64,000 bases of DNA, taken from assembly GCA_019057815.1 (NCBI GenBank), contig JAHLWR010000002.1, positions 1 through 64,000 of the forward strand, written 5' to 3'. The notes below the pieces were generated by a model, which worked only from the letters and a program-made list of their open reading frames with translations, did not search any database and had not been told where the DNA came from. Below are positions 2,749 through 34,939 of the stretch, piece after piece. Each line of letters opens with the position of its first letter. Position 1 is the first letter of the stretch. Source of the stretch: Candidatus Heimdallarchaeota archaeon (GTDB taxonomy: Archaea; Asgardarchaeota; Heimdallarchaeia; Heimdallarchaeales; Heimdallarchaeaceae). The position numbers and the translations under genes are program-made.

Positions 2749-3057
2749 ATGAAAGAATTAACTTTAAATCAAATAGTCCAATCTGTTGTTGAAAACTATT
2801 TGAAGAATCTTACATTAGATTTAATTAAAAGAAACTTTACAGAAGAATTTTATAGCATTGAAGAAACAGAGGGTGATCCCTATAAGATACGTAAAAACAT
2901 TGAAGATTTAGTGGCAGAAACTGCAAAAAAAATTGCTTCAAAAATAGTGAACAAATTGAATGAACAAGATATTAAATCCATTGAAGACTTTGAAAAAAAT
3001 GAAAATGAACAAAAAATAAGAAAAATAATTGCAGATATACTAAAAATAACCAACTAA
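2749..3057 (+). CDS. QatB-like protein, C-terminal part (same frame as 2356-2748)
   Basis: ATG directly follows TAG 2746-2748; helical 'ELTLNQIVQSVVENYLKNL' resembles the QatB C-terminal half; fused length 233 codons. Confidence 0.55.
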   Translation: MKELTLNQIVQSVVENYLKNLTLDLIKRNFTEEFYSIEETEGDPYKIRKNIEDLVAETAKKIASKIVNKLNEQDIKSIEDFEKNENEQKIRKIIADILKITN

Positions 3058-10843: not shown

Positions 10844-12241
10844 ATGTGTGATACTGTAGTAGCTATTGGAAACTCAACAAAAGATGGGAGCGTAATTCTT
10901 GGTAAGAACTCAAATAGGGTAGTCAATGAAACTCATAACATTGAGTATATTAAGGGAAAGAAAAATACTCGTAATTCAAAAGTAAAATGCTCTTTTATGT
11001 CTATTCCACAAATAGAGCAGACTTTTGATGTTCTTCTTCTTAAGCCTTTTTGGATTTTTGGTTGCGAAATGGGAGCTAATGAGTTTGGTGTAACAATAGG
11101 TAATGAAGCTGTTTATGCTAAAGAACCTCTCAGAGACAAAGGATTACTTGGTATGGATTTAATGAGATTAGCTCTTGAACGCTCAAAAACCGCAAAAGAC
11201 GCATTAGAAATAATCATATCATTATTGGAAAAATATGGACAGGGGGGGCAACATTCGTATAACATCAAAGGAAGAGATTATCATAATTCTTACATTATTG
11301 CAGATTCAAAAGAAGCTTGGGTTCTAGAAACCGCTGACAGATTTTGGATTGTTGAAAAGGTAAAAAACATACGAACAATTTCAAATACATTGTCCATTGG
11401 GATCGAGTATGATTTAATACATCCAGAGCTCATACAACACGCAATTAATAGAGGATTCTGCAAGTCTGAAGAAGATTTTCATTTTTCTAATTGTTTCATT
11501 CCAAAATTCAGGCTTTACCATGCGGTTAAGGAATCACAGCCTAGATCTCAGTTTTTCACTAAAGGTAAACAGAGAATGGAATGTACTACTGCACTCTTGC
11601 TGAAAAATAAAGGTAAGATTTCACCTGAAAATATAATGACTATTTTACGAAATCACAACATTTCTCCTAAAGACGAAGAAAAATGGTCTCCATCAAAAGC
11701 AACAGCAAAGAGTCTTTGTCACCATGCAACTGGGATGACTCTTCCTGATAATACTGTTGGTTCTCTTGTATCTCATATAAAAAAGGACATACAAATCCAT
11801 TGGGTAACAGGAACATCTGCACCTTGTATAAGTACCTTTAAACCAATATTTATGCCAGAGCCTGGATTTAAAATAAAACAGAAGCTTGGTGGATCCACCT
11901 ATGATTCAGAAAGCATCTGGTGGCAACATGAAAAACTGCATAGGTTAGTATTATTGGATTATCAGAATAGAATAAATGTTTTCAACGACGAAAGAAACAA
12001 ACTTGAAAATAAGTTTCTGAAAAAAACATATAACCTATTATCAAAAATTTCAGGAAAGCCATTAGCAAAAGATATTGAAAAGATGACTAAAATAACCAAA
12101 GATTCTTTTAAAGAAAGTAGAGAAAAAACTGATGAATGGATAACAAGAGTACAGTATCTTCCTATAGAATCAAAGACAAGAATTCTCTACAGAAGATGGT
12201 GGAATAAATTTAATAAAACTGACCAATTGAAAATCAATTGA
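10844..12241 (+). CDS. Peptidase C69/secernin-family Ntn hydrolase
   Basis: N-terminal nucleophile MCDT, 'GKNSNR', 'GCEMGANEFGV.IGNEAV', 'GMDLMRLALER'. Confidence 0.9.
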   Translation: MCDTVVAIGNSTKDGSVILGKNSNRVVNETHNIEYIKGKKNTRNSKVKCSFMSIPQIEQTFDVLLLKPFWIFGCEMGANEFGVTIGNEAVYAKEPLRDKGLLGMDLMRLALERSKTAKDALEIIISLLEKYGQGGQHSYNIKGRDYHNSYIIADSKEAWVLETADRFWIVEKVKNIRTISNTLSIGIEYDLIHPELIQHAINRGFCKSEEDFHFSNCFIPKFRLYHAVKESQPRSQFFTKGKQRMECTTALLLKNKGKISPENIMTILRNHNISPKDEEKWSPSKATAKSLCHHATGMTLPDNTVGSLVSHIKKDIQIHWVTGTSAPCISTFKPIFMPEPGFKIKQKLGGSTYDSESIWWQHEKLHRLVLLDYQNRINVFNDERNKLENKFLKKTYNLLSKISGKPLAKDIEKMTKITKDSFKESREKTDEWITRVQYLPIESKTRILYRRWWNKFNKTDQLKIN

Positions 12242-12247
12242 AAATGA

Positions 12248-12320
12248 AGCGTGAATTCAGAGTGCCAGTTGATGTCATAGGTAGACCTCCAACGGTAAAA
12301 CCTTCGTCATAATCCACGCT
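12248..12320 (-). ncRNA. Box C/D guide sRNA targeting the 16S rRNA 530 loop
   Basis: 9-bp terminal stem; C box AUGACGA; guide AGGUUUUACCGU; D' UGGA; guide CAACUGGCACU; D box CUGA; TATA-like TTTATTTT ~25 nt upstream. Confidence 0.8.
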
Positions 12321-12407
12321 GAACTCTATTTGAAGTTTCATAAAATAAAGTTTGTTATCACAATTCTAGCAACATATAAATATTTGTTGGGCTAATAAAA
12401 CAAATTA

Positions 12408-14162
12408 ATGAAGAAAATTGTACATCAATTCTTAGAAAAAAAATATCTTGAAACAAAGAAAGTTCATCAGTTACCCCAACTCTTTGAAAGATATAAAATA
12501 GTAAATAAATCATTGGTTACAGAATATCAAGAAGAATACTCCGGTTCTCAGATGTTAATTATTTCTGCTCTTTATAGTTCAGATTATATTATTACTTCTT
12601 CAGAAATAAGATTTGAGTTAGAAGATTCAGGTCGAAGGAAAGAAATAATTGAATTCTGGCAGTCTCTTTCTATTTCAAAAGAAAAAGATTGGCATGAATT
12701 AACACACCTCGTAGCTTTTACATACAGCATTGCTTCATTATTGAGAAAAAGATATTATTTTCAATTAGATAAAGGAATTAAAAAGGAGATAGCTGCAGAA
12801 CAAATCGCTGACTTCTTTTTAAGACACCTCTTGGAATTTTGTGTACAAAAATTTCCTGACATACCATTTGGATGGTTTGCATTTTTAAGTGAAACTGCAC
12901 TTTGTAGATCGGTTTTTTCTGAAATTATTACAAGAAGAAGTGAAACCATTCAAAATATACCTTCAGATGAAAGAGGATTAATTTCTCATCTCATTATGAA
13001 TCACCTTGTTACCGAACTTGAAAAGGAAACTAACAAATCTGTACCAATTCCCTATATCAAAGAAACTAGCATCTTTTACTTATTCACTTGTGATGAAGGA
13101 GGAAAGAAAAATGAGTATACATGCTCTAACATGAAAACCAGTGCCGAAAAAGCCATTCTTAAAGAGTTCCGTAAGTGTACTCCATTGATGGATTCGAATT
13201 ACCCACACATACTAAAGTATATCAGAACCAATTGTAAATATTCGAACCAATCTCCTCTATATAATCATTTTATTGTCCACGCTAAGTCAGGAAATTCTGA
13301 AGGGTGGGTTTCACTTTTATCACCTGTTGATGATATAAATCTAAGTATGATAGAATCACTTCTGCAAATGAAGTTAGAAGACATCAAATCATTCAACAAT
13401 TTGAAAAACAAACTACCTCCTGTAAACTACACCAAGGAGAAAGAAGCTGAGAGAGAAGAAATTGTTGAAATTATTCAAAAAGAAGAAACAAAAGGATTTT
13501 TCTCCAAATTTTTCTCCAAATTTAGGAAGAAAAAAGATACACTGGAAGAAGCTAAAACAGAAGAGAAAAAACCTTTTGATACTTGGAAGAAACTCATTAT
13601 GGAAGAATTGCTAGTTGCAAGCGTTGGTGGAATCAATCTTGGAATTGACTTTTATGATGACTATAGAGAGAATCAGTTTGTTATTAGCGGTGTTGTCGAA
13701 TCTGAAATAAAAGAAATTAACCCTACGGTATTCTACTCGGAAAAAGTCGTTTCTTTCCCCTCTGATTTATTAGATCCAATCATCATGTTAGTGAATTTAA
13801 GCAGAAATTGGACCAACCTAGTAACTAACCAAGAACCAATTTATGCCATTCCTGAAGAAGCTTTTTACTTAGATTCAGCTAATATAGAAGCACTAAGGTT
13901 GGCTGAATTTGTTATAGGAGATGACGGTCTCATTGGTATTCTAGCTGATAAATATGTAAAAAGTATAGTACTTATAGCCAAAGATGAACCAATATACAAA
14001 CGCCAACAAATACAGAAGAAAGTAAGGGAGCTGTTAAGTGCATATCAATCTAGAAAAAATTACAGCATTGTAGATGCTGGGAAAAGAACACTTTCTAGAG
14101 AGATAAATTGGGATAATGTTAACACTAGTTATGAAAAGCATCCACTCTTTTACAGGAAATGA
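12408..14162 (+). CDS. Hypothetical protein
   Basis: 584-aa ORF, no recognised motif. Confidence 0.8.
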   Translation: MKKIVHQFLEKKYLETKKVHQLPQLFERYKIVNKSLVTEYQEEYSGSQMLIISALYSSDYIITSSEIRFELEDSGRRKEIIEFWQSLSISKEKDWHELTHLVAFTYSIASLLRKRYYFQLDKGIKKEIAAEQIADFFLRHLLEFCVQKFPDIPFGWFAFLSETALCRSVFSEIITRRSETIQNIPSDERGLISHLIMNHLVTELEKETNKSVPIPYIKETSIFYLFTCDEGGKKNEYTCSNMKTSAEKAILKEFRKCTPLMDSNYPHILKYIRTNCKYSNQSPLYNHFIVHAKSGNSEGWVSLLSPVDDINLSMIESLLQMKLEDIKSFNNLKNKLPPVNYTKEKEAEREEIVEIIQKEETKGFFSKFFSKFRKKKDTLEEAKTEEKKPFDTWKKLIMEELLVASVGGINLGIDFYDDYRENQFVISGVVESEIKEINPTVFYSEKVVSFPSDLLDPIIMLVNLSRNWTNLVTNQEPIYAIPEEAFYLDSANIEALRLAEFVIGDDGLIGILADKYVKSIVLIAKDEPIYKRQQIQKKVRELLSAYQSRKNYSIVDAGKRTLSREINWDNVNTSYEKHPLFYRK

Positions 14163-34874: not shown

Positions 34875-34939
34875 GTAAAGGATGAACAAGGCATTGCTGA
34901 GAGCATAGCTCAATGACGAATCATAGTTAATCTGATTAT
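34875..34939 (+). ncRNA. Box C/D guide sRNA targeting 23S rRNA helices 69 and 71
   Basis: C AGGAUGA; guide ACAAGGCAUUG; D' CUGA; GAGC-AUA-GCUC hairpin; C' AUGACGA; guide AUCAUAGUUAAU; D CUGA. Confidence 0.85.

Follow-up and report, generated by a model that had tools for sequence, protein, structure and literature searches.

The minus strand of the window (the whole stretch of 64,000 nucleotides analysed, taken from contig C43 of a 3.74-Mb archaeal genome with 32.8% GC) carries an unannotated 73-nt element that runs from position 12320 to position 12248. Judged from its sequence and conservation, this element is a genuine stand-alone box C/D sRNA gene, and its D' guide is predicted to direct methylation of U531 (Um531) in the decoding centre of the host 16S rRNA. 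The explanation that we consider highly probable as a whole is that the RNA acts in a ribonucleoprotein with L7Ae, Nop5 and fibrillarin, that the D' guide selects U531 and that the D guide plays an accessory part.

The first-pass annotation, made from the letters of the sequence, had proposed a box C/D sRNA with a particular sequence and order of boxes. The reverse complement of 12248-12320 matches that string exactly; the location of the element on the minus strand had gone unmentioned. Read on this strand, the element consists of a 9-nt stem strand followed by one extra U, box C, a 12-nt spacer, box D', a 9-nt linker, box C', an 11-nt spacer, box D and a second 9-nt stem strand. The element and its flanks contain the following features.

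12340..12349, minus strand: TATA-like promoter element, UUUAUUUUAU, at about -29 to -20 from the first nucleotide of the stem (direct reading)
12312..12320, minus strand: 5' strand of the terminal stem (C stem of the K-turn, 9 bp), paired with 12248-12256
12304..12310, minus strand: box C, AUGACGA (consensus RUGAUGA), with C for U at position 5 and the GA dinucleotide intact
12292..12303, minus strand: D' guide, 12 nt; positions 2-11 counted from D' read GGUUUUACCG and are antisense to 16S 528-537
12288..12291, minus strand: box D', UGGA, with GA kept
12279..12287, minus strand: D'-C' linker, 9 nt, with a mini-hairpin of 2-3 bp here and a hairpin of 3-8 bp in relatives
12272..12278, minus strand: box C', AUGACAU, degenerate, with GA retained; its C5 and A6 are able to pair with G2 and U1 of D'
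12261..12271, minus strand: D guide, 11 nt; its core CUGGCAC is antisense to 16S 515-521 and its position 5 faces C518
12257..12260, minus strand: box D, CUGA (direct reading)
12248..12256, minus strand: 3' strand of the terminal stem, paired with 12312-12320 and backed by covariation
12230..12247, minus strand: U-rich tract with two UUUU runs, 3' of the stem, overlapping the stop codon of the convergent ORF 10844-12241

Boxes C and D are those of an archaeal C/D sRNA, the substitution at position 5 of box C being the sole departure. A 3-nt bulge (UAU) separates the stem from the GA dinucleotide that faces the GA of box D, which is the standard layout of a K-turn. The internal motifs D' and C' keep their GA dinucleotides, though they are degenerate in the window copy; divergent C'/D' motifs are still functional, at least in yeast (PMC3116282). 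The two spacers, of 12 and 11 nt, lie within the norm of 10-12 nt for archaeal guides (PMC7994747). The minimum free energy of the RNA is unremarkable (z-score -1.72), as expected, since the guides of a C/D RNA stay open.

The gene lies within a gap of 166 nt between the plus-strand ORFs 10844-12241 and 12408-14162, antisense to both. The former encodes a Peptidase_C69-like protein (E 5.8e-10), and the 584-aa product of the latter has no Pfam match. Orthologues of the peptidase-like protein flank the sRNA throughout the host family, and orthologues of the 584-aa protein do so in genera g1, g3 and g4. The position of the sRNA is syntenic within this family (f1); copies from Hodarchaeota stand in another context, which is conserved among themselves. 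A T/A-rich box about 20-30 nt upstream recurs among homologues, and in genera g1 and g3 it is preceded by a purine-rich stretch and lies at the same distance from the stem. The genome being AT-rich, we regard the TATA-like box as supportive only. Most homologues, those of Hodarchaeota included, have T-rich tracts 3' of the stem, and the U-rich tract downstream of the window copy is likely an archaeal terminator. In copies from genus g3 (L005-L031), a UAUCGCAA motif is also conserved some 40-45 nt 5' of the sRNA, just before the promoter-like box. ARAGORN found no tRNA in the window, and no Rfam family matched anywhere in it at gathering thresholds.

The host genome encodes the proteins of a C/D ribonucleoprotein. 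Two genes of the L7Ae family were found, together with adjoining genes for the other two components:

C4:35100-35765: fibrillarin, 303 bits
C4:36017-36694: Nop5, 220 bits, adjoining the fibrillarin gene

A single 16S gene is present along with a 23S gene of 3375 nt, both on contig C23. The two are divergent (16S on the minus strand, 23S on the plus strand, about 900 nt apart, at G000:C23:18421-24175, L001/L002), and the 23S, compared with a model of 2987 positions, probably carries expansion segments.

Homologues of the element were detected by BLAST in all 30 other genomes of the host family. An alignment of 25 distinct copies (A1) was assembled, and a covariance model (R1) was made from the relatives. 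R1 found one copy per genome in 29 of the 30 family genomes, covering all five genera, with E-values from 1e-11 to 1e-21, and it scored the window copy at 79.6 bits (E 2.7e-17, at 12247-12321). A strict pattern of box C, guide and D' occurred exactly once per genome in 29 genomes of the host family and in 18 of 22 Hodarchaeota genomes (family f5); a looser pattern added three f5 genomes, bringing the Hodarchaeota to 21 of 22. The strict pattern was absent from 348 other Asgard genomes, and its reversed controls gave no match. Looser patterns aimed at diverged copies, in other families or with an A opposite position 534, gave matches only at the control rate. Six candidate loci obtained with looser patterns (L244-L249) were inspected and rejected, none having C/D architecture. 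Among the matches listed for named prokaryotic genomes, the bacterial ones were attributable to chance.

The secondary structure is supported by covariation. Over the 25 copies, 93% of the cells of the terminal stem and the D'-C' hairpin were paired, against 19-46% when the partner strand was slid; 9 of 11 pairs were altered on both sides, and none of 500 shuffles did as well. For the terminal stem in the model structure, 7 of 8 pairs were changed on both sides and 96% of cells were paired (25 homologues). The first hairpin pair is GC in 25/25 copies and the second is CG in 15, UA in 6 and GC in 4; Hodarchaeota copies have longer covarying hairpins. The match to R1 and the covariation of stem and hairpin thus bear out the identification of the element as a box C/D sRNA. 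The boxes vary within recognisable limits. Box C is AUGAUGA, GUGAUGA or GUGAUGU in relatives, the UGACGA variant of the window copy being the commonest among Hodarchaeota copies, and the D' position is occupied by UUGA, UCGA, AUGA, CCGA or the canonical CUGA. Box C' is variable in family f1 and is the canonical AUGAUGA in Hodarchaeota copies. For box D, CUGA is present in 29 of 30 copies from f1 and in each of the 13 Hodarchaeota copies that were parsed; CCGA replaces it in three other copies from Hodarchaeota. A census of C/D candidates over the 3.7-Mb genome placed the window element first among those targeting rRNA, and no candidate from the reversed-genome control reached a score of 9. Its search expression was strict, returning 8 candidates in the genome and 3 in the control. 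As non-canonical sRNAs escape it, the census gives no count of the sRNAs of this organism.

Some loci depart from the usual arrangement. In two Hodarchaeota genomes (L227 on G070:C106 and L228 on G072:C65) a box C of the form AUGAAGA is followed by the same D' guide and CUGA, but no C'/D half could be recognised beyond them; both loci may hold a single-guide form of the RNA or a degraded one. In one genome of genus g3, a second copy (L070, G022:C117:15376-15454) lies about 2 kb from the normal one. Its 3' half, from D' through the hairpin, C', the D guide and D to the stem, is identical to that of the normal copy, and the half proximal to box C, with the D' guide, differs. This looks like guide turnover by duplication.

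The D' guide forms 11 contiguous pairs, ten Watson-Crick and one G·U, with host 16S at E. coli positions 527-537 (host SSU 467-477), in a numbering that we take to be set by the universal 530-loop sequence. The host sequence at 528-537 is CGGUAAAACC. An alignment of the guides to the organism's own 16S, with at least 9 bp required of either, had been put forward in the first-pass annotation, and the D' guide exceeds that length. The uridine selected is also the one named there by the N+5 rule: position 5 of the guide (A) forms a Watson-Crick pair with U531 (host U471), and this register follows from the canonical CUGA that orthologues have at the D' position. Position 1 (U) wobbles with G527. 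The match is the unique best site among host SSU, LSU and 25 tRNAs, and a 10-bp site spanning position 5 is reached by only 1.1% of shuffled guides (p about 0.011). The same match is present in the 16S of G004, G012, G014 and G073. In the last of these, a Hodarchaeota genome, the 16S match (L241, G073:C9:1695-3919) extends over 2225 nt for 1478 model positions, implying an insertion of about 750 nt, either an intron or an expansion.

Positions 2-11 from D' are identical in 43 of 43 parsed copies; at positions 1 and 12 all four bases occur. This invariance is partly built into the pattern by which copies were collected; BLAST and model searches, which are independent of the pattern, returned the same genomes and no variant copies, which mitigates the bias. 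The invariant block agrees with the 10-nt substrate limit and core pairing region of C/D ribonucleoproteins (PMC7229835). An A at position 534, which had been deduced from the guide alone, is indeed present in the 530 loop (GGUAAAACC) of the host (G000) and of every other 16S of the class that was read (G004, G012, G014, G073, G033, G035 and G056), the loop being the same in all. In E. coli and most archaea this position is a U. Because the target is invariant in every sRNA-bearing lineage, no covariation between guide and target can be observed. A534 is also present in families of the class in which the sRNA search found none. Taken together, the length, uniqueness and register of the pairing lead us to predict Um531 as the product of the D' guide.

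Perfect pairing of both guides would have implied U522 and A527, a compensatory change of a conserved 16S pair, along with mismatches to the 515F primer. Neither expectation was borne out, as host 16S has C522 and G527 and fits 515F; the alternative offered at the time, a wobble of the guide U with G527, is what position 1 of the D' guide makes.

The D guide pairs with 16S 514-521 (SSU 454-461) through seven Watson-Crick pairs and one G·U pair (with G514), with position 5 in Watson-Crick register with C518. From this, a second methylation, Cm518, had been proposed, and it has fared poorly. An equally good rRNA site is found by 70% of shuffled guides, so that the complementarity is non-significant, and the N+5 nucleotide changes with lineage: it is C518 in genera g1, g2, g4 and g5 and in some Hodarchaeota copies, G517 in genus g3, where one nucleotide has been lost, and C519 in most Hodarchaeota copies. 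A true dual guide, directing Cm518 besides Um531, is in our estimate possible but doubtful. The pairing is contiguous, its target GUGCCAG occurs only once in host rRNAs, and every lineage retains the GGCA core, whose complement is UGCC (516-519); the crenarchaeal Sac sR115, Pca sR28 and Tte sR114 have the same topology, with D' directed to A535 and D to G515. Yet the flanks of the core and its register vary, and the complementarity stays at 6-8 bp, never longer, in about 45 copies despite an invariant target. The AA conserved on the 5' side of the core lies opposite C522-C523 and cannot pair with 16S, and matches equal to that at 514-521 exist at SSU 797-803 and in tRNA-Pro(CGG) at 24-31. On balance, methylation of C518 through this pairing is unlikely.

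The D guide might instead be an orphan, or serve a tRNA, the 23S, a pre-rRNA spacer or an mRNA, its likeness to 16S 515-521 being coincidental; we would entertain this only tentatively. Orphan guides are common in archaea (PMC7994747), and both the non-significant match and the conserved nucleotides that cannot pair with 16S suit such a reading. Individual lineages offer other partners: the g3 guide forms seven Watson-Crick pairs and a G·U with LSU 41-48, at the 5' end of its own 23S, as good as its 16S match, and the g4 guide forms 8 bp with LSU 741-748. Matches of 9-11 bp are many across the genome, in coding DNA and at chance expectation. A search of 16S, 23S, 25 tRNAs and the whole genome yielded no convincing alternative site, the tRNAs being those called by ARAGORN, which probably misses intron-containing ones. 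What weighs against an orphan guide is that no alternative site is common to all lineages. The only rRNA segment with at least 6 bp to every version of the D guide is 16S 513-521, and its distance of 6 nt from the D' target is usual for archaeal dual guides. We conclude that the D guide more likely makes an accessory pairing to the other strand of helix 18, or is an orphan, than directs a second methylation. Accessory pairing by a second guide region has been documented for yeast snoRNAs (PMC3116282).

In the mechanism that we favour, with U531 as the methylation target and the D guide as an accessory, the transcript would fold into two motifs, a terminal C/D K-turn that the 9-bp stem closes and, internally, a C'/D' K-turn or K-loop, and would bind host L7Ae, Nop5 and fibrillarin. 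The D' guide would form its maximal duplex of 10 bp plus one wobble with the 530 loop of helix 18 (527-537) in nascent 16S, and fibrillarin would thereby be placed on the ribose of U531, which adjoins the decoding nucleotide G530. The D guide would most likely add 6-8 bp of accessory or chaperone-type pairing to the opposite strand of helix 18 (514-521), the 16S linker of 5 nt between them (522-526) presumably passing around the C'/D' motif.

It could also be argued that the RNA is mainly a folding chaperone that holds the strands of helix 18 apart during assembly, with methylation secondary or absent. The two guides are antisense to strands that pair together in mature helix 18, and a chaperone role has been proposed for dual guides (PMC7994747, PMC4644070). 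We consider this improbable as the main function, since the invariant block covers exactly positions 2-11 from D', which is catalytic geometry and more than pairing alone needs, and a full set of catalytic RNP proteins is encoded. The remaining alternative, chance box-like motifs in AT-rich intergenic DNA with no functional RNA, finds some footing in the imperfect box C and C'/D' of the window copy and is effectively refuted by the covariation, the synteny, an E-value of about 1e-17 to the family model and the presence of one copy each in about 50 genomes from two families.

Helix 18 is a known hotspot of archaeal methylation by dual guides (PMC4644070). In Sac sR115, Pca sR28, Tte sR114 and Iho sR21 (Dennis et al. 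2015, PMC4644070), as in the Heimdall RNA, the D' guide is directed to the 3' strand of 16S helix 18 and the D guide to the 5' strand. The sites differ: the Sac sR115 group is predicted to methylate A535 and G515, whereas U531 and, less firmly, C518 are predicted for the Heimdall RNA. Its guides also have other sequences (Sac sR115 was compared), and the members of that group are compact thermophile-type sRNAs, in contrast to the Heimdall RNA, which has a terminal stem of 9 bp and whose relatives have an internal hairpin. The equivalent positions, U508 and C494/C495 in the numbering of that paper, are not among the sites predicted for seven species in its supplement (PMC4644070). Archaeal C/D families in Rfam (snoPyro_CD, sR1, sR21 and others) resemble the Heimdall RNA in box order, spacers of about 12 nt and dual-guide layout. 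An Rfam search at E up to 10 with the window RNA and Hodarchaeota copies gave only noise-level matches, the best for Hodarchaeota being sub-threshold at 15-20 bits.

The uridine predicted to be methylated is also methylated in eukaryotes, as Um578 in yeast (by snR77), Um627 in human and Um580 in Arabidopsis (PMC2794176, PMC3511168). The equivalence of U531 with the yeast and human sites, which had been noticed at the outset, therefore stands. The eukaryotic guides form Rfam clan CL00057, comprising snR77 (yeast), SNORD65/HBII-135 (human), snoR77Y (plants), Nc CD24 (Neurospora) and TtnuCD7 (Tetrahymena). Clan and Heimdall RNA have a common target, the uridine in the universal GGUAA of the 530 loop (Um575 in Neurospora, U572 in Tetrahymena), and both use the D' guide, with ACCGU abutting the D' box in identical register (Rfam consensus, Nc CD24). 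Comparison with the Rfam models of snR77 and SNORD65 had been suggested, and it gave a divided answer. Site and D' register are the same; in sequence, the top match of the window RNA, snoR77Y, is at noise level, its 17.5 bits (E 0.97) falling short of the gathering score of 52 by which Rfam decides membership, and Hodarchaeota copies had no CL00057 match in Rfam. In the consensus of snoR77Y the D spacer has CUGGC three nucleotides from box D, as does the Heimdall RNA. The guides differ where the targets differ, A534 in the Heimdall lineage against U in eukaryotes; a further difference is that U5 snRNA is the assigned target of the D guide in Nc CD24.

These likenesses raise the question of descent. 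Orthology with the SNORD65/snR77/snoR77Y clan, the Heimdall/Hodarchaeota sRNA being its archaeal counterpart and eukaryotes having inherited the guide from a Heimdall-group ancestor, is in our view an unlikely, minority possibility. It would be favoured by the same nucleotide, the same D' guide and register, the CUGGC of the plant consensus and the restriction to two Asgard families, which we take to be those usually placed nearest to the eukaryotes. Against it, the similarity falls below threshold and is mostly imposed by the common target, and searches of other Heimdallarchaeia families did not recover the sRNA. The likeness may well be convergent, since a common target forces guide similarity; Hoeppner and Poole reached the same verdict on other archaeal/eukaryotic pairs (PMC3511168). 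The clan has been traced to LECA, archaeal counterparts of LECA snoRNAs are very few, and the archaeal/eukaryotic site equivalences amount to a handful, none of them for CL00057 (PMC3511168). The link with eukaryotes is thus best described as an equivalence of site and guide usage, a functional analogy in which the Heimdall RNA is predicted to work at the counterpart of yeast U578 through its D' guide, as members of the clan do.

To our knowledge, annotations of Asgard genomes hardly ever include C/D guide RNAs, and none is described in the papers searched. The present RNA represents a well-supported C/D sRNA family common to Heimdallarchaeota and Hodarchaeota MAGs, and model R1 is ready for its annotation. 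Through its predicted target it extends the decoding-centre hotspot of thermophile sRNAs to mesophilic Asgard archaea and offers a concrete test of whether individual snoRNAs, beyond the machinery, predate eukaryotes.

Two further C/D candidates were observed in the same genome. The first, at 34875-34939 on the plus strand of the window, has a terminal stem, box C AGGAUGA, box D' CUGA, a short hairpin, box C' AUGACGA and box D CUGA, and its D' guide matches host 23S 2037-2046 with 10 of 10 Watson-Crick pairs. A perfect match of its D guide to H69 was rejected, the pairing found being only a G·U-rich one at LSU 2434 (8 Watson-Crick and 3 G·U). The second lies outside the window (G000:C39:10355-10405, plus strand) and ranked second in the census; it is a fully canonical C/D sRNA, with AUGAUGA/CUGA present twice and a 9-bp stem, and its D guide forms 10 bp, one of them G·U, with 23S around position 3015.
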